From assembly GCF_003334255.1 (NCBI RefSeq), contig NZ_QOWU01000059.1: a DNA stretch of 31,491 bases, one strand, 5' to 3'. The notes under the pieces are model-generated. The model had not been told where the DNA came from and did not search any database. It saw nothing but the letters and a program-made list of their open reading frames with translations. Source of the DNA: Escherichia coli. GTDB taxonomy: Bacteria > Pseudomonadota > Gammaproteobacteria > Enterobacterales > Enterobacteriaceae. The translations under genes were made by a program, and so were the position numbers. The number at the start of each line of letters is the position of its first letter. The stretch's first letter is position 1. Shown in pieces: positions 1 to 23,692 of this stretch.

Positions 1-63
1 GACATCAGTACCCGTGATGAAGGCGGGGGCGGAAAGGTCGTGGTTATCGGGCGGCAGGGGTAA
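1..63 (+). CDS. 3' end of a phage tail assembly protein I-like gene (partial; start lies upstream of the window)
   Basis: Frame 1 runs open from base 1 to a TAA at 61-63 (…DISTRDEGGGGKVVVIGRQG*). It sits directly upstream of the J homolog, as gene I does in lambda. Identification rests on position and on the Gly-rich C-terminus only. Confidence 0.4.
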   Translation, partial: DISTRDEGGGGKVVVIGRQG

Positions 64-406
64 AAAGAATAAAAAAATCCCGCAGTGATCGCGGACAGGA
101 ACTGCGGGAGAGTTACGAAGATTAAGTGTAAGGAATTATTCTTATATCACGACAAAAAAATTAACGCAGAGAAATTATACGCGCCACAGTCAGTTTGTGA
201 AAATGTGAAGATATTCAGAATTTTTATGCCATTACCGGTTTTAACCAACAGGATTATCGGTGGGCATGAAAGAAAACCCCGGTATCTGCTGATACCGGGG
301 TTTCTCTTTAGCATGGCAGAAATGTGTTTCATGCTTTTCGGGCGAAGGATATCCGACTTCTGTACGGAATGGCAAGTGGCGGTTAATTTATTCAGGGGAA
401 GGCTGT

Positions 407-3400
407 ATGGGAAAAGGTGGCGGTAAGGCACACACGCCTCGTGAGGCGAAGGATAATCTCAAATCCACGCAGATGATGAGCGTGATTGATGCGATTGGTG
501 AGGGACCGATAGAAGGTCCGGTGAAGGGACTGCAGAGTATCCTGGTGAACAAAACCCCGCTGACGGACACGGACGGTAATCCCGTGATACACGGTGTGAC
601 GGCGGTCTGGCGCGCCGGGGAGCAGGAGCAGACACCACCGGAAGGCTTTGAGTCCTCCGGTGCTGAAACCGGACTGGGCGTGGAAGTGACGAAGGCAAAA
701 CCGGTGACGCGCACCATTACGTCCGCGAACATTGACCGCCTGCGGGTTACCTTCGGGGTGCAGTCACTGGTGCAGACCACGTCAAAGGGTGACCGAAACC
801 CGACATCCGTCCGCCTGCTGATTCAGTTACAGCGTAACGGTAACTGGGTGACAGAAAAGGATGTCACCATTAACGGCAAGACCACCTCGCAGTTTCTGGC
901 GTCGGTGATTCTGGATAATCTGCCTCCCCGTCCTTTTAACATCCGGATGGTCCGGGAGACAGCGGACAGCACCACGGACCAGCTGCAGAATAAGACGCTG
1001 TGGTCGTCATACACCGAAATCATCGATGTGAAACAGTGCTACCCGAACACGGCCATTGTGGGGCTGCAGGTGGATGCGGAGCAGTTCGGCGGCCAGCAGA
1101 TGACGGTGAACTACCATATCCGCGGTCGCATCATCCAGGTGCCGTCAAACTATGACCCGGAAAAACGCACGTACAGTGGTATCTGGGACGGCAGTCTGAA
1201 ACCGGCATACAGCAACAACCCGGCCTGGTGCCTGTGGGACATGCTGACTCACCCGCGCTACGGCATGGGAAAACGTCTGGGGGCGGCGGATGTGGACAAG
1301 TGGGCGCTGTATGCCATCGGGCAGTACTGCGACCAGACGGTCCCGGATGGTTTCGGGGGGACCGAGCCGCGGATGACCTTTAATGCGTACCTGGCACAAC
1401 AGCGTAAGGCGTGGGACGTTCTCAGTGATTTCTGCTCTGCGATGCGCTGTATGCCGGTATGGAACGGTCAGACGCTGACGTTCGTTCAGGACCGCCCGTC
1501 GGATGTGGTGTGGCCGTACACCAGCAGCGATGTGGTGGTGGATGATAACGGCGTGGGGTTCCGCTACAGCTTCAGTGCCCTGAAGGACCGGCACACGGCG
1601 GTGGAGGTGAATTACACCGACCCGCAGAACGGCTGGCAGACCTCCACGGAACTGGTGGAAGACCCGGAAGCCATACTGCGCTACGGACGCAACCTGCTGA
1701 AGATGGACGCGTTCGGCTGTACCAGCCGCGGTCAGGCCCACCGTGCCGGGCTGTGGGTGATAAAGACCGAACTGCTGGAAACGCAGACGGTGGATTTCAC
1801 GCTCGGGTCACAGGGGCTGCGTCACACACCCGGTGACATCATTGAAATCTGTGATAACGACTATGCCGGGACCATGACCGGCGGACGTGTCCTGTCCATC
1901 GATGCCGCCAGCCGTACCCTGACGCTGGACCGGGAGGTGACACTGCCGGAGACCGGCACGGCCACTGTTAATCTGATTAACGGCAGCGGTAAGCCGGCGA
2001 GCGTGGCCATCACCGCACACCCCGCGCCTGACCGGATACAGGTCAGCACCCTGCCGGATGGTGTGGAGACATACGGTGTGTGGGGACTCTCCCTGCCGTC
2101 ACTGCGTCGTCGCCTGTTCCGCTGTGTCTCCATCCGGGAAAACACGGACGGCACCTTTGCCATCACGGCGGTGCAGCACGTACCTGAAAAAGAAGCCATC
2201 GTGGATAACGGGGCCCGCTTTGAGCCGCAGTCAGGCACCCTGAACAGCGTTATCCCACCGGCAGTGCAGCACCTGACGGTGGAGGTGAGTGCAGCTGACG
2301 GTCAGTATCTGGCACAGGCGAAATGGGACACGCCGCGGGTGGTGAAGGGTGTGCGCTTCAGTCTGCGTCTGACCAGCGGAAGCGGAGAAGACAGCCGTCT
2401 GGTGAGCACCGCCAGCACCGCAGACACGGAGCACCGTTTCAGCGGCCTGCCACTGGGGGAATACACCCTGACGGTCAGGGCGATTAACAGTTATGGCCAG
2501 CAGGGCGAACCGGCCACCACCACGTTCAGGATTAACGCACCTGCAAAACCCGCCACCATTGAGCTGACGCCGGGGTATTTTCAGATAACGGCGGTCCCGC
2601 GTCTTGCGGTGTATGACCCGACGGTACAGTTTGAATTCTGGTTCTCAGAAAAACGCATCACGAACACAGCACAGGTGGAAAAATCTGCCCGTTATCTGGG
2701 GACCGGCAGTCAGTGGACTGTCCATGGGAGCCGGATTAAGCCGGGGACGGATTTCTGGTTTTACGTGCGAAGCGTCAACCTGGTGGGAAAATCTGCTTTT
2801 GTGGAAGCCAGCGGGCAGCCCAGCAATGATGGTGAAGGGTATCTGGAAATTTTCCGGGGGCTGATAGATGAGACGCTTCTGGGCCAGGCACTGAAAGAGC
2901 GCATTGATGCTTCAGCGCTGCGTACGGAGGTCACGCAACTGGAAGAAGACATCCGTCAGCGGATGGACACGGATATCGCAGAAGTGACCCGGAAAATCGG
3001 GAAGGCGGAAAACAGCCTCACGCAGCTGGTTGCGAAAAAGAATGAGGACCAGACACTGGCCATCGCGCAGGTGAGCCAGAAAGTGGACCGGGTGAGCAGT
3101 GAAATCTCACAGACTGTCAGCCAGGGGCAGTCAGAAAACGCCCGACAGATAGCACAGGTCCGCCAGTACGTGGATAAAAAAGGGAGTGAAATTACCTCGA
3201 CCACGGATAAAAAGCTGGGTGACCAGGCCGTGACCATACAGCAAATCCAGCGGGTTCAGTCAGACACGCGCAATGAGCTGAATGCCATGTATATGCTGAA
3301 GGTGCAGAAAACAAAAAACGGTATTCCCTATGTGGCCGGGATTGGCGCGGGGATTGAGGATGTTGATGGTCAGACGCTGAGCAGTATTCTGCTGCAGGCG

Positions 3401-4099
3401 GACCGTATCGCGATGATTACCCCGGAGAACGGCAACACCACGCCGCTGTTTGTGGCGCAGGGGAATCAGCTGTTCATGAACGACGTGTTCCTGAAGCGAC
3501 TGTTTGCGGTGAGCATCACGTCATCCGGCAATCCTCCTACGTTTTCCCTGACGCCGGATGGCAGGCTGACAGCCCGCAATGCGGATATCAGTGGAGCCAT
3601 CACGGCGAATACCGGCACGCTCAATAATGTCACCATTAACGAGAACTGTGTCATCAGAGGGAAACTGTCTGCAAACCAGATTGAAGGCGATCTCGTTAAA
3701 ACAGTGGGTAAGGCTTTCCCCCGTGACTCCCGTGCACCGGAGCGTTGGCCATCAGGAACCATTACCGTCAGGGTTTATGACGATCAGCCGTTTAACCGGC
3801 AGATTGTTATTCCGGCGGTGGCTTTCAGCGGTGCCAGACATGAGCGGGAGAACAGCGATACTTATTCGTCATGCCGCCTGATAGTACGGAAAAACGGTGC
3901 TGAAATTTATAACCGTACCGCGCTGGATAATACGCTGATTTACAGTGGTGTTATTGATATGCCTGCTGGTCGCGGCCACATGACGCTGGAGTTTTCTGTA
4001 TCAGCATGGTGGGTAAATGGCTGGTATCCCACAGCAAGTATCAGCGATTTGCTGGTTGTTGTGATGAAGAAAGCCACTGCAGGCATCACGATTAGCTGA
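407..4099 (+). CDS. J: Phage host specificity protein J (tail tip / central tail fiber), 1230 aa
   Basis: N-terminus [22 protein letters not shown]… and long collinear stretches (…[22 protein letters not shown]…, …[24 protein letters not shown]…, …[18 protein letters not shown]…) match lambda gpJ as I recall it. AGGGGAAGG Shine-Dalgarno lies ahead of the ATG at 407. About 100 aa longer than lambda J, with extra coiled-coil-like sequence near aa 820-950. Confidence 0.93.
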
Positions 4100-4118
4100 A
4101 TTTTATAACCCCAATACG

Positions 4119-4142
4119 GGCGCCAGAAATGGCGCCTTTTTT
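4119..4142 (+). terminator. Intrinsic terminator-like hairpin after J (GGCGCC-agaaat-GGCGCC followed by TTTTTT)
   Basis: Read directly: 6-bp GC stem 4119-4124 / 4131-4136, 6-nt loop, then a T6 run at 4137-4142. Confidence 0.55.
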
Positions 4143-4166
4143 ATTGCAGAAAAGCGAGAGGTAATT

Positions 4167-4766
4167 ATGCGTAAAGTTTGTGCAGCCATTTTGTCCGCAG
4201 CCATCTGTCTGTCCGTATCCGGTGCGCCTGCATGGGCGTCTGAACATCAGTCCACACTGAGCGCGGGGTATCTTCATGCCCGTACGAACGCTCCCGGCAG
4301 CGATAATCTGAACGGGATTAACGTGAAATACCGTTATGAGTTTACGGACGCGCTGGGGCTGATTACGTCCTTCAGTTATGCCAATGCTGAGGATGAGCAA
4401 AAAACGCACTACAGCGATACCCGCTGGCATGAAGATTCCGTGCGTAACCGCTGGTTCAGCGTGATGGCGGGGCCGTCTGTACGCGTGAATGAATGGTTCA
4501 GCGCGTATGCGATGGTGGGTGTGGCTTACAGCCGTGTGTCGACTTTCTCCGGGGATTATCTCCGCGTAACTGACAACAAGGGGAAAACGCACGATGTGCT
4601 GACCGGAAGTGATGACGGTCGCCACAGCAACACGTCTCTGGCGTGGGGGGCTGGCGTGCAGTTTAACCCGACCGAATCCGTAACCATTGACCTTGCTTAT
4701 GAAGGTTCCGGTAGTGGCGACTGGCGAACGGATGCATTTATTGTTGGTATCGGATACCGTTTCTGA
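4167..4766 (+). CDS. lom: Lom/Ail-family outer membrane beta-barrel protein (lambda lom homolog), 199 aa
   Basis: Signal peptide MRKVCAAILSAAICLSVSGAPAWA, C-terminal aromatic residue (…GIGYRF), GAGAGG Shine-Dalgarno, and the J-lom-stf order typical of lambdoid phages. Sequence resembles lambda Lom. Confidence 0.88.
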   Translation: MRKVCAAILSAAICLSVSGAPAWASEHQSTLSAGYLHARTNAPGSDNLNGINVKYRYEFTDALGLITSFSYANAEDEQKTHYSDTRWHEDSVRNRWFSVMAGPSVRVNEWFSAYAMVGVAYSRVSTFSGDYLRVTDNKGKTHDVLTGSDDGRHSNTSLAWGAGVQFNPTESVTIDLAYEGSGSGDWRTDAFIVGIGYRF

Positions 4767-4870
4767 CAACAGACGCCGATTTATCTTCTGTAAATATTGT
4801 TATGATACGCAGGTTCATCCACCTTATGGGGTGAACTGCGTTTGAGGAAACGTAAAGTTACACTGTCCTG

Positions 4871-4903
4871 AAGCCCGTGGCGTCACTGCTGCGGGCTTTT
4901 TTT
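4871..4903 (+). terminator. Intrinsic terminator-like hairpin between lom and stf
   Basis: aAGCCCG…CGGGCTt stem (4871-4877 / 4892-4898) with further wobble pairs inward, followed by T7 at 4897-4903. Confidence 0.55.
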
Positions 4904-4917
4904 ATTGGTGGAAAAGT

Positions 4918-7900
4918 ATGACAGTAAAAATTTCTGGCGTGCTTAAAGATGGCACAGGAAAACCAGTACAGAACTGCACCATTGTGCTGAAGGCCAGACG
5001 AACCAGCAGCACGGTGGTGGTGAACACGGTGGCCTCTGAAAATCCGGATGAAGCCGGACGTTACAGCATGGATGTTGAGCATGGCCAGTACAGCGTCACC
5101 CTGCTGGTTGAAGGTTTTCCGCCTTCACATGCCGGGACCATTACCGTCTATGAAGGTTCCAGACCAGGTACGCTGAATGATTTTCTCGGTGCCATGACGG
5201 AGGATGATGTCCGACCGGAGGCACTGCGCCGCTTTGAGCAGATGGTGGAAGAGGTGTCACGTAACGCCTCCGCGGTTGCACAGAATACGGCAGCCGCGAA
5301 AAAATCAGCCAGCGATGCCAGTGCATCAGCCAGCGAGGCGGCAACTCATGCAACCGATGCTGCAGCCTCAGCACGTGCCGCCAGCACGTCAGCCGGACAG
5401 GCCGCGTCGTCGGCTCAGTCAGCGTCTTCCAGCGCAGGAACGGCATCGACAAAGGCCCGTGAAGCAGCAAAAAGTGCTGCTGCTGCAGAGTCATCAAAAA
5501 GCGCGGCAGCTACCAGCGCCAGTGCCGCGAAAACGTCAGAAACGAATGCCGCAGCATCACAAAAATCGGCAGCCACTTCTGCATCCACAGCGACCACGAA
5601 GGCGTCAGAAGCTGCCACCTCGGCACGGGGTGCGGCGGCCTCAAAAGAGGCAGCGAAATCTTCAGAAACGAATGCATCATCAAGTGCCAGTAGTGCAGCT
5701 TCCTCGGCAACGGCGGCAGGAAATTCCGCGAAGGCGGCAAAAACGTCCGAGACGAACGCTAAGTCTTCTGAAACAGCAGCGGGACAGAGCGCCTCAGCTG
5801 CGGCAGGTTCAAAAACAGCGGCTGCATTATCTGCCAGTGCCGCGTCAACAAGTGCCGGGCAGGCCTCAGCCAGTGCCACCGCCGCCGGAAAATCGGCAGA
5901 AAGCGCCGCATCATCCGCTTCAACAGCCACAACGAAAGCTGGCAAAGCCACTGAGCAAGCCACTGCAGCAGCGAGGTCTGCTTCTGCAGCAAAAACCTCT
6001 GAAACAAATGCAAAGACTTCAGCAGACAATGCTGCTTCCTCTAAGGCGGCAGCCGCATCGTCAGCCAGTTCAGCGGCGTCATCGGCATCATCTGCGTCTG
6101 CTTCAAAAGATGAGGCGACCAGACAAGCGTCAGCAGCGAAAGGTAGTGCCACGACAGCAACAACGAAAGCATCAGAGGCGGCAGGCAGTGCGACGGCTGC
6201 ATCTCAGAGCAAAGTTGCTGCTGAATCCGCGGCAACGCGCGCCGAGACAGCAGCAAAACGGGCAGAGGATATTGCATCCGCCGTGGCGCTGGAGGATGCG
6301 AGCACGACGAAAAAGGGGATAGTACAGCTCAGCAGTGCAACAAACAGCACCAGTGAAAAGCTGGCGGCAACGCCAAAGGCAGTTAAAACTGTTAAAGATA
6401 GTTCAGTTCAAAAAACTGGCGACACAATGGGAGGGCAGTTAAAAATCAGCACGATAAATGCTCTTCGAATATTCAACCAAGCCTTTGGCCTTATTTTTAG
6501 GCGTTCCGAAGATCATCTTCATCTTATTCCGACTAATGAAGGGGAGGGGGAAAATGGAGACATCGGTTCATTAAGACCATTCTCTATAAACTTAAGATCA
6601 GGGTTGGTGTCCATCGGTAATGGACTAAAAGTTGGTGGTAGTGTTACTGGTAATTTGACCGGAAACGCAGATACTGCGACCAAGATCAAGACAGCACGTA
6701 AGATTGGGGGCGTGGCATTTGATGGATCGGCAGATATCAACTTGCCTGGAGTCAACGCTACCGGTAATCAAAACACTACAGGTAATGCTGCGACCGCCAC
6801 GAAACTTCAGGCAGCCAGAACGATTAACGGTGTGTCATTTGATGGTAGTGCAAATATCACATTGACCCCTTCAAATATTGGGGCATTGGCATTAACTGGA
6901 GGGACTCTTTCAGGTGGTTTAACTGCTGCTGGTGAGGTTATTTCAAGGTCAGCAAATGGTCTGCGTATTGCCTATGGCAACTATGGATTCTTTATCCGAA
7001 ATGATGGATCAAACACATATTTTATGTTGACAGATTCGGGTAACAGTCTTGGTACGCACAATAGCTTAAGGCCGTTTATAATTAGTAACCATACTGGCAA
7101 TGTTACAATTGCAACTAAATTAAACGCGAGTGGTGGTATCACTGGATCTTTATCGGGTAATGCAAGCACAGCAACCAAATTGCAAACTGCAAGGACAATT
7201 AACGGCGTAAAATTTGACGGCTCGGCAAATATTGAAGCGTTTCCGCCAGGTGTTCCGCTGCCGTGGCCATCAGATACACCACCTGCAGGTTATGCGATCA
7301 TGCAGGGGCAGACGTTTGATAAGGCAGCATATCCGAAACTGGCTATTGCCTATCCTTCAGGTGTTATTCCAGATATGCGCGGCTGGACAATCAAGGGCAA
7401 ACCCGCCAGTGGCCGGGCCGTATTGTCTCAGGAACAGGACGGCATAAAATCGCACACCCACAGCGCCAGCGCATCCAGTACGGATTTGGGGACGAAAACC
7501 ACATCGTCGTTTGATTACGGCACTAAATCCACGAATAACACCGGGGCGCATACGCACAGTCTGAGTGGCTCTACGGGGTCTGCCGGTGTTCATACTCATG
7601 GTAATGGTATTCGTTGGCCAGGAGGCGGCGGTTCTGCGTTAGCATTTTATGATGGCGGTGGGTTCACTTATGTCCAGAATTCACAGTATCAAGTAAGCCC
7701 GGAGACTTCTTCCTATAGATCGTATTATCAACGTATTCAGACACAGTCAGCAGGTGCTCATACCCACTCGCTGTCTGGTACTGCAGCAAGTTCTGGCGCA
7801 CATGCACATACTGTAGGTATTGGTGCGCATACGCACTCCGTTGCGATTGGTTCACATGGACACACCATCACCGTTAACGCTGCGGGTAACGCGGAAAACA

Positions 7901-7944
7901 CCGTCAAAAACATCGCATTTAACTATATTGTGAGGCTTGCATAA
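4918..7944 (+). CDS. stf: Side tail fiber protein (Stf-like), 1008 aa, mosaic
   Basis: N-terminus [22 protein letters not shown]… and C-terminus …[31 protein letters not shown] match lambda Stf as recalled. Contains an Ala/Ser/Thr-rich low-complexity segment, three copies of a G-N-x-x-TATK(L/I)-x-(T/A)AR-x-I-(N/G)GV-x-FDGSA(N/D)I phage tail-fiber repeat (about nt 6650-7240), and His-rich HTHS/HAHT repeats near the C-terminus. Confidence 0.9.
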
Positions 7945-8528
7945 TGGCATTCAGAATGAGTGAACAAGCACGGACCATAAAAATTTATAATCTGCTGGCC
8001 GGAACTAATGAATTTATTGGTGAAGGTGACGCATATATTCCGCCTCATACAGGTCTGCCAGCAAACAGTACCGATATTGCACCACCAGATATTCCTGCTG
8101 GCTTTGTGGCTGTTTTCAACAGTGATGAGGCATCGTGGCATCTCGTTGAAGACCATCGGGGGAAAACGGTTTATGACGTAGCGTCAGGGGACGAGTTATT
8201 TATTTCTGAACTCGGTCCGTTACCGGAAAATGTTACCTGGTTATCGCCGGAAGGGGAGTTTCAGAAGTGGAACGGCACAGCCTGGGTGAAGGATACGGAA
8301 GCAGAAAAACTGTTCCGGATCCGGGAGGCGGAAGAAACAAAAAACAACCTGATGCAGGTAGCCAGTGAGCATATTGCGCCGCTTCAGGATGCTGCAGATC
8401 TGGAAATTGCAACGGAGAAAGAAACCTCATTGCTGGAAGCCTGGAAAAAGTATCGGGTGTTGCTGAACCGTGTTGATACATCAACTGCACCTGATATTGA
8501 GTGGCCTACGAACCCTGTCAGGGAGTAA
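7944..8528 (+). CDS. tfa: Tail fiber assembly protein (Tfa), 194 aa
   Basis: [34 protein letters not shown]… is near-identical to lambda Tfa as recalled. The start overlaps the stf stop in a TAATG arrangement (translational coupling). Confidence 0.92.
8367..8528 (+). repeat. Direct repeat copy A (3' end of tfa), ~160 bp
   Basis: Nucleotide alignment by eye: gagcatattgcgccgcttcaggatgctgcagatctggaaattgcaacgg… versus gagtatattgcgccactgcaggatgctgtagatctggaaatcgcaacgg… at 9416; roughly 85-90% identity, same orientation. Confidence 0.75.
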
Positions 8529-8542
8529 TCATTGGGATTATG

Positions 8543-8590
8543 CCGCAGCACGTCTTAAGCAAGAACGTGCTGCGGTTGGATGCTATTTTT
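8543..8590. terminator. Hairpin plus T-run between convergent tfa (+) and methyltransferase (-); likely bidirectional terminator
   Basis: Perfect 11-bp stem CCGCAGCACGT (8543-8553) / ACGTGCTGCGG (8565-8575), 11-nt loop, then …tgctatttttt to 8590. Confidence 0.5.
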
Positions 8591-9251
8591 TCCCTGAAGC
8601 GGAAAACATTACTACAGTACCTTGAACCTTGGTTTTAACATTCTCGAAATGCTCTGAGAGTATATGTGTTAAGCCTTCTTCGGAATCTTTTGTGTTTGAA
8701 AAGATGCCTTTCTGATTGTAAATGCGCATCAGTTTTTGACCGAAGCTATTGTGCACAACTCCATCGCCAAGAATTGTGGCTCCGTATAGAGTTCCATCGT
8801 CAGTTAAGGCCTGCGCCGCATTGCGTATTACACAGCTTTTTGTAGATATATTTCCAGGCAGGCAGTGAAGAAGGTAAAACATGGAAATGGAATCAAATTG
8901 ACCATGTAACGCCGCGGGATAAGGTTCAAAAACATCATGGCTAATTTTATGTTTAATTTTTGATTCCCCAGCCCTTGTAGATGCCGCGTTCAGGCTAGCT
9001 TCGTTCAAATCCATTAAAGATATCAGACTACTCTCAGGTACGTGAGTAAGGTAAAACCCAGTTCCAACACCAATATCCAGATGGTTGTTACCTACATGTT
9101 CCAGAAAGTGTGGAAGAAGGTGTTCCTTTGTAGGACATCCCCATGCAAGCCGATTTGATACTCCCAAAACCCACCAGTCATAAAGCTTTAGGGTAAGTGG
9201 TGTGTAAATTTTAGCCCCATCATCTGTGTTTTTTTTCATTGATTTCACCAT
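8583..9251 (-). CDS. Class I SAM-dependent methyltransferase (prophage cargo gene), 222 aa from the first ATG
   Basis: Glycine-rich SAM-binding motif I (…HLDIGVGTGFYL…) followed by an acidic residue at the end of the next beta-strand (…ISLMDLNE…). Opposite strand to the tail genes and visibly more AT-rich than its flanks. The start is ambiguous: ATG at 9249-9251 (MVKS…) or ATG at 9236-9238 (MKKNT…, preceded by GGTGA at SD spacing). Confidence 0.75.
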   Translation of the reverse strand: MVKSMKKNTDDGAKIYTPLTLKLYDWWVLGVSNRLAWGCPTKEHLLPHFLEHVGNNHLDIGVGTGFYLTHVPESSLISLMDLNEASLNAASTRAGESKIKHKISHDVFEPYPAALHGQFDSISMFYLLHCLPGNISTKSCVIRNAAQALTDDGTLYGATILGDGVVHNSFGQKLMRIYNQKGIFSNTKDSEEGLTHILSEHFENVKTKVQGTVVMFSASGKK

Positions 9252-9307
9252 GTTATAGTTTTATTTGTGAATTAAATCAATTATGGCGATGAATTACAAG
9301 GGGTTAA

Positions 9308-9574
9308 ATGCTGCCGCAGCATAGCGATATTGAAATAGCCTGGTATGCTTCGATACAGCAGGAGCCGAATGACTGGAAGACCGTCACCACACAGTTCCAC
9401 ATCCAGGAATTCAGTGAGTATATTGCGCCACTGCAGGATGCTGTAGATCTGGAAATCGCAACGGCGGAAGAAAGATCGTTGCTGGAGGCATGGAATAAAT
9501 ATCGGGTATTGTTGAATCGTGTTGATACATCAACTGCACCTGATATTGAGTGGCCGACTTCACCTGCAGAGTAA
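9308..9574 (+). pseudogene. Partial second copy of tfa (C-terminal domain only, 88-aa ORF)
   Basis: C-terminal ~50 aa ([47 protein letters not shown]…) parallel the C-terminus of the Tfa at 7944-8528. The N-terminal part has no Tfa N-domain, so it is probably a remnant. Confidence 0.6.
9416..9574 (+). repeat. Direct repeat copy B (3' end of the tfa fragment)
   Basis: See copy A. The two copies bracket the methyltransferase gene. Confidence 0.75.
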
Positions 9575-9610
9575 TCAACGGCGCAGGGATGATATTTTGT
9601 GCTTGAAGTG

Positions 9611-9640
9611 CCTCCCCGACCATTCAGATAGTCGGGGAGG
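9611..9640. other. Perfect 10-bp stem hairpin (CCTCCCCGAC-n10-GTCGGGGAGG) near the prophage/chromosome junction
   Basis: Read directly. No clean U-tract on either side, so its role (terminator, att-associated structure) is open. Confidence 0.35.
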
Positions 9641-9805
9641 GGTATTGGGATTATACGCAATCAGTTTTAGTTAAAGACCGAAGCTCTCGAAAAATCTTTC
9701 TCCAAAACCAGAATGGAATTGATTGATTTTGATAGGATCTATAACGCCGTTACCTTAAACGGCAAAACCACTCAAAAACAAACTTAATGCATTGAATATA
9801 AAGGA

Positions 9806-10669
9806 TTAATCATCTAATTCGCTCACCTTCTTATTCAGCAGACGAGAAGCGCGCCAGTAAACCAGCAACATCAGGCCCATTACGATAGTCAGCGTAATGC
9901 TGGTGGCTGCACCAAATGGCCAGTCACGAATATTGAGGAACTGTACCTTGATGACGTTACCGATCAGCAGGTTTTTCGCACCGCCCATCAGGTCGGACAC
10001 ATAGAACAGGCCCATCGCTGGCAGCATCACCAGCAAACATCCGGCAATAATTCCCGGCATCGTCAGTGGAATAATGATACGGATAAAAGTCTGTAACTTG
10101 CTGGCACCGAGATCGCGCGCCGCCTCAAGCAACGGCTTATCCAGTTTTTCGATACTGGAGTACAGCGGCATCACCATAAACGGTAGCAGAATGTAAACCA
10201 GACCGATAATCACCGCACTGGGCGTGAACATGATACGAATTGGTGTGTCGATAACGCCCAGCCAGAGCAAAAACTCGTTGAGATAGCCTTTGGTGCTGAG
10301 GAAAATTTTCAGCCCGTAGATGCGAATCAGTGAGTTGGTCCAGAAGGGAACAATCAGCAGAAACAGCAGCAGCGGACGCACCTTGTGTGGCAGCTTCGCC
10401 AGAAACCAGGCAAACGGGTAGCCCAGCACCAGGCAGGCGAGGGTGGCGATCAGCGCCATATTCAGCGAGTGCAATAGCACTTCAAAATAGAGCGGATCGA
10501 GCAGACGCGTGTAGTTATCCAGCGTAAAGACCATTTTGACGAAACTGGCGTCGTCGCGGGTCAAAAAGCTGGTGCCAATGATCATCAGGTTGGGCAGAAA
10601 GACAAACAACACAAGCCAACCGACAATAGTGACAATCACTACATTCTGGAACTTACTTGTGTTCTTCAT
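9806..10669 (-). CDS. potB: Spermidine/putrescine ABC transporter permease PotB
   Basis: Multi-pass permease sequence (…[20 protein letters not shown]…[21 protein letters not shown]…) directly downstream of, and overlapping, potA as in potABCD. The 287-aa ORF from the first ATG may exceed the true length; the real start could be an internal GTG/ATG. Confidence 0.85.
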
Positions 10670-11789
10670 CAGCCAGTACGACCTCCCAGCTTTCTACCCA
10701 ATTAATGGCCATTTTTTGGTCGAGAGAGTGGTCAAAGTCAGGGTCGTCTTCATTGAAGAATTCGCTGACCATCACCATCTTGCCATTTTCCAGTTCAACA
10801 ACCGACTCCAGCGTCATGCCTTTGTAGTTACGCTCACGAACGTAACCAATCAGCCCTTCAGCGTGGTTGTCGTCGTTAATCTCTTCAACACGTAAGTCTT
10901 CCGGGCGCAGCAGAACATGCAGTTTTTGCCCCGGTTCAACGGCGAAGTTAACGTAGATATTACATTCGCGGCCTTCAACGTTGGCGCGTACGCGCTGCTC
11001 GTCTAGACGTTCGATGACAGTGGCGTTAAACATATTGATTTCGCCAATGAAGCCGGCAACAAACAGGTTTTTCGGCTCTTCGTAAATTTCGCGCGGTGTA
11101 CCATCTTGCTCAATACGACCCTCGCGCATCACCACAATCCTGTCTGACATGGTGAGCGCTTCTTCCTGATCGTGAGTGACAAAGACGAAGGTAATACCAA
11201 GCTTACGCTGTAACGCTTTCAGCTCGTTCTGCATTTGCTTACGCAGTTTGTAATCCAGCGCTGAGAGCGACTCATCCAGCAACAACAGACGAGGCTTGTT
11301 AACCACCGCGCGAGCAATGGCGACGCGTTGCTGTTGACCACCAGAGAGCTGATGCGGTTTACGTTGAGCGAAGGTTTCCAGTTGCACCATCCGCAGGGCT
11401 TCCATCACGCGGGGCGTAATTTCAGCAGCGGGGGTTTTTTGCATGCGCAACCCAAAGGCCACATTTTCGAACACGGTCATGTGGGGGAAAAGTGCGTAGC
11501 TTTGGAAAACAGTGTTCACATAGCGGTTTTCCGCCGGAACGTGGGTGATGTCCTCGTTATCCAGCATGATGCGTCCGGAATCAACAGTTTCCAGACCTGC
11601 AATCAGGCGAAGAACGGTTGTTTTACCGCAGCCAGAAGGGCCAAGCAGCGTGAGGAACTCGCCATTGTTGATAGTCAGATCCAGCTGGGGAATGACCTCT
11701 TTACCATCAAAGCATTTGCGAATTCCCGCCAATTGCACCAGCGGTGAAAGCGAACTCGGTTGTTTATTCAATTTTTTACTCTGTCCCAT
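10653..11789 (-). CDS. potA: Spermidine/putrescine ABC transporter ATP-binding protein PotA, 378 aa
   Basis: Walker [13 protein letters not shown] signature [14 protein letters not shown], Walker B LLLLDE; length and sequence match E. coli PotA. Confidence 0.93.
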
Positions 11790-12038
11790 GTAAACGCAAC
11801 GGATGGCTTACCGATGCGGGGTTTGTGGTTAACCACCTTGGTGACTCTTAATGAGGGCGGTAATTCTACGGCAAACCGCTTGAATCGCCAATCTTTGTTG
11901 TGAATTACTGGCTTAGCTTTATATTCATTAAGGTAATGCTGATAAATATTCCCGCTTGCAGGGGTAAAAGTGACCTGACGCAATATTTGTCTTTTCTTGC
12001 TTCTTAATAATGTTGTCACAAAAAGTGAGGGTGACTAC

Positions 12039-21317: not shown

Positions 21318-22568
21318 ATGGAAAGTAAAGTAGTTGTTCCGGCACAAGGCAAGAAGATCACCCTGCAAAACGGCAAACTCAACGTTCCTGAAAATCCGAT
21401 TATCCCTTACATTGAAGGTGATGGAATCGGTGTAGATGTAACCCCAGCCATGCTGAAAGTGGTCGACGCTGCAGTCGAGAAAGCCTATAAAGGCGAGCGT
21501 AAAATCTCCTGGATGGAAATTTACACCGGTGAAAAATCCACACAGGTTTATGGTCAGGACGTCTGGCTGCCTGCTGAAACTCTTGATCTGATTCGTGAAT
21601 ATCGCGTTGCCATTAAAGGTCCGCTGACCACTCCGGTTGGTGGCGGTATTCGCTCTCTGAACGTTGCCCTGCGCCAGGAACTGGATCTCTACATCTGCCT
21701 GCGTCCGGTACGTTACTATCAGGGCACTCCAAGCCCGGTTAAACACCCTGAACTGACCGATATGGTTATCTTCCGTGAAAACTCGGAAGACATTTATGCG
21801 GGTATCGAATGGAAAGCAGACTCTGCCGACGCCGAGAAAGTGATTAAATTCCTGCGTGAAGAGATGGGGGTGAAGAAAATTCGCTTCCCGGAACATTGTG
21901 GTATCGGTATTAAGCCGTGTTCGGAAGAAGGCACCAAACGTCTGGTTCGTGCAGCGATCGAATACGCAATTGCTAACGATCGTGACTCTGTGACTCTGGT
22001 GCACAAAGGCAACATCATGAAGTTCACCGAAGGAGCGTTTAAAGACTGGGGCTACCAGCTGGCGCGTGAAGAGTTTGGCGGTGAACTGATCGACGGTGGC
22101 CCGTGGCTGAAAGTTAAAAACCCGAACACTGGCAAAGAGATCGTCATTAAAGACGTGATTGCTGATGCATTCCTGCAACAGATCCTGCTGCGTCCGGCTG
22201 AATATGATGTTATCGCCTGTATGAACCTGAACGGTGACTACATTTCTGACGCCCTGGCAGCGCAGGTTGGCGGTATCGGTATCGCCCCTGGTGCAAACAT
22301 CGGTGACGAATGCGCCCTGTTTGAAGCCACCCACGGTACTGCGCCGAAATATGCCGGTCAGGACAAAGTAAATCCTGGCTCTATTATTCTCTCCGCTGAG
22401 ATGATGCTGCGCCATATGGGTTGGACTGAAGCGGCTGACCTGATTGTTAAAGGTATGGAAGGCGCAATCAATGCCAAGACCGTAACTTATGACTTCGAAC
22501 GTCTGATGGAAGGCGCTAAGCTGCTGAAATGTTCAGAGTTTGGTGAAGCGATCATCGAAAACATGTAA
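21318..22568 (+). CDS. icd: NADP-dependent isocitrate dehydrogenase, 416 aa
   Basis: [45 protein letters not shown]… is a full-length match to E. coli Icd, with strong codon bias. Confidence 0.96.
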
Positions 22569-22591
22569 TCTCTCCATGTGTTAAATATTGA

Positions 22592-22622
22592 AACGGGCGT
22601 ATAACACGCCCGTTGTTTTATT
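22592..22622 (+). terminator. icd intrinsic terminator (AACGGGCGT-ataac-ACGCCCGTT followed by GTTTTATTTAT)
   Basis: 9-bp perfect stem followed by a T-rich run, 24 bp after the icd stop. Confidence 0.65.
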
Positions 22623-22670
22623 TATGTGGATATTATTAATAGCATATCGAGCATATTTATATGAAGCCCA

Positions 22671-22994
22671 TTACTTGAGCCCATATGGGCATATTTTTAT
22701 AATGCAACTATTATGTAAACATTTATTTGTTATTTTGCTTTCTCCTGGAGGACACTCTTGACTGCTTTTGAGTAAACTCCATAAATCCTTGTTGAATGGT
22801 GCGATGTGATAAATAGTAATAGGATATTCTTTATCCTTAAGGATAATACCAGACTTAACCGGTGTAAATATACTGCCAGGAGGGAGAAATATAGTAGATT
22901 GATACCAGATGATCATTTTCATATTACCCCATATGGCTGAAAAAGATATACCACATGTAGGTTGAATTACCGTGTCAATTACTATCCACTTCAT
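22671..22994 (-). CDS. iraM: Anti-adaptor protein IraM (RssB inhibitor; YcgW), 107 aa
   Basis: [32 protein letters not shown]… recognised as IraM; AT-rich gene immediately after icd, as in K-12 once e14 is discounted. Confidence 0.8.
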
Positions 22995-23454
22995 TTGTTA
23001 TGTCTTATCCCACGGTATTTAATATGGTTCATTAGGATGTTTATTTCTTGATTTTGCATATGAGTATATTACCCCCCCCTCAAAAAATAAATTAATTAAA
23101 ATGATGGCTTATATAAAATAAAATTTAAAGCAAGGAATCTCAATGGATGTTAAACAAAATGAGATTTTGTGAAAGCAATAAATTATTGACTTCGTTTTAG
23201 ATTTGTTTAGCTATAATGTTATACATTCAAATGACTGAACATCCTGTAATTAAAACATAGCCTTTATGCTACTTTGTACCAATTTGCTAAACATTATGGT
23301 TGCCTTTTTATATAACGATAATAATGAATATAAGCATGACATGAGAATAAGGTTTCAATTTTTGAGTTATATAGGAATGATTTAACCTGTTCCTGGCTAA
23401 AATACATATAACCGGATGATGACTAAACCAAAATACATGTGCGTTAAGTATTGA

Positions 23455-23485
23455 AACGGACGTGTGGCACGGCCGTTGTTTTTAT
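23455..23485 (+). terminator. Second, diverged copy of the icd-terminator-like hairpin (AACGGACGTG-tgg-CACGGCCGTT followed by GTTTTTATAAA)
   Basis: 9/10-bp stem then a T-run on the plus strand. About 45 bp (from ttgaaacgg…) resembles 22585-22625 at roughly 80% identity. Confidence 0.35.
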
Positions 23486-23692
23486 AAATATGTTAACCGT
23501 TATAAAATAACGTATCAAAAGTCAAGTGATCACATTTCAAATATCAAGTTGATAGTATTAGTCTGGTGATTATTTATGGGTGACAATAAAAAGACAGTAT
23601 TAATCATCCATAGAGATAGTCTCTGCACTTTTATTTCCATTATGCTAATGCCTTACTGAATTATGAAGCATTTCTTAAGTATCCAACTTTAG

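Follow-up and report, generated by a model that had tools for sequence, protein, structure and literature searches.

The right arm of a lambdoid prophage at the potB/potC junction of Escherichia coli

A run of lambda-like tail genes lying next to the spermidine-transporter gene potB in Escherichia coli raises two questions: whether these genes are a remnant or one end of a complete prophage, and what has become of potC, which would normally follow potB. We examined this locus in a stretch of 31,491 nucleotides (nt) from contig NZ_QOWU01000059.1 (assembly GCF_003334255.1), which is referred to in full as the window. An earlier note, made from the letters alone, had proposed that positions 1 to 9660 are a tail module (I'-J-lom-stf-tfa) occupying the position of potC and belonging to a prophage whose right arm ends near 9600 to 9800. 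Our analyses indicated that a complete lambdoid prophage of 45.3 kb, inserted by a lambda-type tyrosine integrase and carrying morons that are possibly self-expressed, has window 1-9837 as its right arm. We put the probability of this reading at about 95%.

Families were assigned with PHROG, NCBIfam, Pfam, and Rfam, lambda proteins were compared by BLASTP, and genome counts are given as a share of 5426 complete E. coli genomes. The tail genes and the sites between them were as follows.

1-63, + strand: 3' end of tail assembly gene I (last 20 codons and stop); the annotated WP_001090032.1 ends here in an identical genome
407-4099, + strand: tail tip/host specificity gene J, 1230 aa (NF049904, lambda J alignment)
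4118-4137, + strand: intrinsic terminator-like site after J (terminator scan)
4167-4766, + strand: lom, an Ail/Lom outer membrane beta-barrel, 199 aa (phrog_108, lambda Lom)
4870-4899, + strand: intrinsic terminator-like site after lom, with a 13-bp stem and then a T run (terminator scan)
4918-7944, + strand: side tail fibre gene stf, an intact 1008-aa open reading frame (ORF) (phrog_295, lambda orf-401/orf-314)
7944-8528, + strand: tail fibre assembly gene tfa, 194 aa (phrog_105, lambda Tfa)

The five lambdoid late ORFs thus had the canonical order and the coordinates that the earlier note had given them, and the PHROG and NCBIfam matches, well beyond chance, agreed with the lambda comparison. 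The gene I fragment by itself gave a weak phrog_4554 tail match (E = 0.004); the identical genome has the complete gene annotated at this place, which confirmed the assignment. J scored 2313.5 bits against NCBIfam NF049904 (lambda_TipJ), exceeding the curated cut-off of 1950. The homology proposed for J, stf, and tfa held up in real alignments: J aligned with lambda J at 72% identity over 856 aa and, in the receptor-binding C-terminal part (292 aa), at 50%, Stf was 77% identical to orf-401 at its N terminus and 65% to orf-314 at its C terminus, and Tfa was 94% identical to lambda Tfa. Stf also matched phrog_295 (E = 7e-195) and many further tail-fibre PHROGs, and Tfa matched phrog_105 (E = 2e-100). 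The translational coupling of stf and tfa was found at 7942-7946, where a TAATG gives a one-base overlap of stop and start, as in lambda orf-314/orf-194.

Window 1-12000 was 100% identical to the chromosome of E. coli G1/2 (NZ_CP060083.1, reverse strand), and the upstream content was read from the annotation of that genome, the identity referring to the first 12 kb only. The supposition that the window starts inside a prophage was borne out, as a search upstream for phage structural genes found a complete set. Contiguous with the window and in this order were genes for lysozyme, Rz, terS, terL, W (head-tail joining), portal, C (protease), D (decoration), E (major capsid), FI, and FII, followed in the same annotation by Z, U, V, G, T, H (tape measure), M, L, K, I, and J, which is the full order of lambda. 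Further upstream were a holin gene, three tRNAs, Q, RusA, hokD, cro/repressor, dicB, exo, xis, and int. The int/xis, immunity, Q, lysis, terminase, head, and tail modules were therefore all present in lambda order between the attachment-site repeats. The tRNAs, two tRNA-Arg and one tRNA-Ile, lie upstream of the lysis genes, and a second iraM paralogue, hokD, and dicB-ydfABC are carried by the same prophage outside the window (L002 2737-7231).

The boundary of the prophage was then defined by the following features.

9685-9707, + strand: two TCTC(G/C)AAAA motifs, candidate arm-type integrase sites by their position
9806-9823, - strand: phage-supplied last five codons and stop of potB (junction comparison)
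9824-9837, no strand: 14-bp integration core CACCTTCTTATTCA, the right prophage/host junction (core comparison)

A three-way comparison of the K-12 attB with both junctions placed the two cores 45,304 bp apart. K-12 has a single copy of the core at the potB/potC junction, and in the prophage the copy beside int matches 13/14 positions of the one at the right junction. Read along potB, the core is TGAATAAGAAGGTG. Where the site is empty, genomes matched a junction probe from 9824 onward only. The crossover falls in the last potB codons, 10 nt upstream of the potC ATG. As a result, PotB ends in ...NKKVSELDD, with a phage-supplied stop at 9806-9808, rather than in the native ...NKKVELE; five phage-encoded residues replace the last three residues of PotB upon integration. 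At the other end of the prophage, an intact potC (WP_000580316.1, 795 nt) and potD adjoin int, so that the potABCD operon is split, with potAB at the right junction, potCD beside int, and potC displaced by 45.3 kb. The potC gene is a published phage insertion site (PMC8065619, PMC11052207). The same junction was detected in 932/5426 genomes (17%), including the ATCC 25922 reference strain. Three motifs similar to the candidate arm-type sites were present in the int-proximal arm; the window-wide count of the motif TCTCCAAAA was not above chance, and position alone is suggestive.

These results refined the earlier note. The right arm does abut potB, but its true end is the core at 9824-9837 and not 9660. 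The module is I'-J-lom-stf-tfa, but its tail ORFs stop at 8528. It does stand where potC would normally follow potB, but potC is intact and has been displaced, not replaced.

We regard it as possible, and on balance unlikely, that the prophage, although complete in structure, is defective and has been domesticated, being retained for its morons (lom, a PasB-like RNA, and a methyltransferase in the window, and hokD, dicB, and iraM upstream) rather than as a phage. Several pseudogenes in the early and lysis regions, the presence of the junction in 17% of complete genomes, and the proposal that, among the Pas small RNAs, none is older or better conserved than PasB (10.64898/2026.05.13.724894) are all consistent with domestication. 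On the other hand, the structural, lysis, int, and xis genes are all annotated as intact, and near-related tail modules are found in isolated lambdoid phages that form plaques. An isolated tail-gene island, or a decayed remnant lacking head, packaging, and integration functions, is very improbable. Only tail genes are visible inside the window, and such remnants are frequent in E. coli (prophage PP6 of strain E2348/69 has a truncated stf followed by fragments); however, all lambda morphogenetic genes, together with lysis, Q, immunity, xis, and int, are contiguous in the identical genome, and stf is uninterrupted. An island is thereby refuted, provided that the source of the window is G1/2 or a close relative, as the 100% identity over 12 kb suggests. 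That the element deleted or replaced potC and left the strain without a spermidine permease subunit, which is one way to read the title of the earlier note and fits the lack of potC-like sequence after potB within the window, is refuted by the full-length potC and potD beside int and by junctions that are a clean duplication of the core.

Three observations weigh against the reading of window 1-9837 as the arm of a complete prophage. Pseudogenes or fragments are annotated in the early and lysis regions (YdfR, DUF1737, and one frameshifted hypothetical gene), and the prophage may therefore be non-inducible despite its complete structural set. A scan between int and potC found no consensus promoter that could account for expression of potCD in the split operon. 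Finally, no deposited phage in the phage collection covered at least 80% of window 1-10000 (best match, 76% coverage at 93% identity); many lambdoid phages annotated with J, Lom, side tail fibre, and Tfa genes ranked below the best match. Judged by these comparisons, the exact mosaic is without a deposited counterpart among isolated phages.

The arrangement at the int-side junction (L002 17859-17890) bears on the second of these points. The potC Shine-Dalgarno sequence is kept, and an 8-codon mini-ORF, ATG AAT AAA AAG GTG GAA CTC GAA TGA, ends on the native ATGA overlap with potC. It is conceivable, if rather improbable, that the attachment module is built to keep the split potABCD operon working, with potCD reliant on read-through from int. 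If this were true, spermidine uptake would be tied to the state of the prophage in ~17% of E. coli genomes.

The prophage reading would imply the following course of events. A lambda-type tyrosine integrase would have inserted the phage at the 14-bp core in the last potB codons. By analogy with lambda, the late genes (the end of I, J, stf, and tfa) would be silent in the lysogen, and upon induction, presuming that the prophage is inducible, a Q-dependent late promoter would drive building of the tail tip and side fibres. Separate signals accompany lom, the PasB-like RNA, and the methyltransferase, each of which the lysogen may express.

Established lambda biology suggests that J and Stf/Tfa would set host range. 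The C-terminal 270 aa of J were 91 to 98% identical to the J proteins of O157/O55-type phages and PhiR49_2 and only 50 to 64% identical to lambda-type J, and use of LamB is therefore not to be assumed; the literature, when searched for a receptor bound by such J proteins, gave nothing usable. Compared with lambda J, the protein has ~85 additional, coiled-coil-like residues at ~855-938 (window 2970-3220). The earlier view of lom as an outer membrane gene agreed with a full-length match to phrog_108 (residues 1-199/199, E = 4.5e-109) and with 42% identity to lambda Lom from end to end. Lom fell under the cut-offs of the OmpX and PagC equivalog models, as expected of a paralogue, and E2348/69 PP6 carries Lom under the identical accession, WP_001233154.1. 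Lying between the terminator-like sites at 4118-4137 and 4870-4899, lom has what is, from these predicted signals, a moron layout. The sole Rfam match above gathering score in the whole window was IS009 (222 bits, 8287-8485). It lies wholly within the tfa coding sequence and was rejected as a separate RNA gene, since tfa homology explains it best; what the family describes appears to be part of a tfa gene.

The gap between I and J measures 344 nt, compared with 60 nt in lambda, and contains three features.

69-167 (about), - strand (antisense): PasB-family small RNA (sRNA) gene, its ends predicted from promoter and terminator
174-201 (201->174), - strand: sigma-70 promoter of the PasB-like RNA, near consensus, TTCACA-16-TATAAT, 11/12, kept in all aligned variants
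268-310, no strand: G+C-rich hairpin with T runs, upstream of the sRNA promoter (read from sequence)

An intrinsic terminator of the PasB-like RNA was found at 95->79 on the minus strand, followed by a T run, which gives a predicted length of ~99 nt (predicted fold, z = -2.15). Promoter and terminator were kept in 7 variants. PasB of enteropathogenic E. coli (EPEC) E2348/69 is a validated Hfq-dependent sRNA of ~83 nt (PMC8550237), encoded at NC_011601 1466343->1466261 in prophage PP6 (table S6, PMC8550237), and its distribution is described in a 2026 preprint on the Pas sRNAs (10.64898/2026.05.13.724894). The window element has the same I-J position and strand as PasB; promoter and terminator align and the middle diverges. 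Of the published 23-nt Northern probe, the first 20 nt, AATCCCGCAGTGATCGCGGA, are exactly window 75-94. By position and alignment, the I-J element is a PasB-family sRNA gene, and it would presumably act as an sRNA. Related copies were present in 1836/5426 genomes, with 633 records at least 99% identical to the window's variant, and in all six copies whose context was inspected (6/6) the gene lay between I and J. None of the 30 matches listed carried an RNA annotation of this gene, and RefSeq lacked it in every sampled genome. AgvB and AsxR were considered for the I-J RNA and rejected, as those lie at the Q/PR' moron site and no Rfam match was obtained even at E <= 10. An ORF at 85-426 (+, 113 aa) was likewise rejected as a gene, having no PHROG or NCBIfam match.

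The hairpin at 268-310, to which Rfam gave sub-threshold matches only, may be a bidirectional terminator or an insulator. Window 262-375 could encode a second small transcript on the minus strand, with a weak promoter-like site (375->346) followed by two hairpins, GCATG...CATGC and 310-268, and a T run. The I-J gap of E2348/69 lacks this segment, which PPompW-type phages do carry.

Downstream of the last of the five tail ORFs, positions 8529-9660 hold a minus-strand methyltransferase gene, an 88-aa tfa-like ORF, and a hairpin.

8543-8575, no strand: 11-bp inverted repeat between the convergent tfa and methyltransferase genes, then a + strand T run (read from sequence)
8583-9251, - strand: class I S-adenosylmethionine-dependent methyltransferase, 222 aa, a moron against the late operon (Pfam, phrog_2132, PGAP)
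9308-9574, + strand: 88-aa tfa-like ORF (phrog_2341 residues 1-88/88, E = 2.4e-60)
9611-9640, no strand: 10-bp G+C-rich hairpin beyond the last phage ORF (fold of 9575-9665, -31.3 kcal/mol, z = -2.57)

The methyltransferase gene, which is PGAP annotated, matched Pfam Methyltransf_12/23/25/11 and phrog_2132 over its full length (E = 4e-157) and is preceded by a promoter-like site (9307->9280). The tfa-like ORF has a Tfa C-terminal domain (82% identity to Tfa residues 137-191) with a different N terminus; RefSeq labels 9401-9574 as a tfa pseudogene, although the ORF corresponds to a full-length phrog_2341 member. The methyltransferase gene is flanked by a 158-nt direct repeat of 86% identity (8352-8509 and 9401-9558), which consists of the 3' ends of tfa and of the tfa-like ORF. 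An invertible fibre segment of the Mu/P1/e14 style was considered, since related phages carry an invertase, and was rejected because the tfa 3' ends are direct repeats; no inverted repeats of the tail-fibre inversion type were found in 7900-9850. Two further ORFs were rejected as genes. The 45-aa hypothetical ORF of RefSeq (8501-8638) overlaps the ends of tfa and the methyltransferase gene, lacks a PHROG or NCBIfam match, and is probably spurious. The ORF at 9304-9660 (-, 118 aa) also lacks a match in both collections and probably set the end coordinate of the earlier note, from which the PasB-like gene, the methyltransferase, the 88-aa tfa-like ORF, the replacement of the PotB C terminus, the moron layout of lom, and the hairpin at 9611-9640 were absent.

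Comparison with known systems showed which parts of this arm are shared. The lambda tail-fibre region (NC_001416 14773-22557) has the same gene order, strand, and one-base stf/tfa overlap. In lambda PaPa, stf is split into orf-401 and orf-314, whereas the window stf is uninterrupted; lambda has ea47/ea31/ea59 downstream in place of the methyltransferase and tfa-like ORF, lacks the antisense sRNA gene in the I-J gap, and attaches between gal and bio rather than at potB/potC. The lambdoid prophage at potC in O157:H7 (e.g., F8952; the 'potC' site of PMC11052207) has the same insertion point, with potC intact beside int. Its Xis accession is identical, its int-proximal arm is identical at 200/201 positions, and its integrase agrees in length and annotated family. 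The O157:H7 right arm differs, carrying the type III secretion system effector genes espK/espN and insertion sequence elements and no methyltransferase cassette. Its phage-side homology to the window starts only ~30 nt before the core, and the PotB tail that it supplies is ...KKATEIDN. In E2348/69 PP6, the PasB gene is ~78% identical to the window variant over promoter and RNA, with the central, probable seed part diverged, and the downstream Lom protein is identical. In the isolated Escherichia phage 2G7b (NC_049954, Nesevirus), this methyltransferase gene recurs on the minus strand after J, lom, and fibre genes, together with short tfa-like ORFs; the phage differs in its fibre genes, of which it has additional ones, and covers 53% of the query at 84% identity. 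Among bacterial genomes, ATCC 25922 assemblies were ~99.6% identical to window 1-12000, and at least 80% of this 12-kb query was covered at one place in 282/5426 genomes.

Elsewhere in the window, a low-GC segment (22500-24000, GC 0.32) lies directly downstream of icd and holds iraM, ymgL, and ycgX. The annotation of the matching genome shows no prophage genes just past icd.

The locus holds a lambdoid tail module of textbook type, its insertion site has been published, all of its features are of kinds already known, and it matters little beyond correct annotation. The useful points are that the prophage boundary lies inside potB, that the potABCD operon is split in these strains, and that the I-J gap holds an unannotated gene of the PasB sRNA family.

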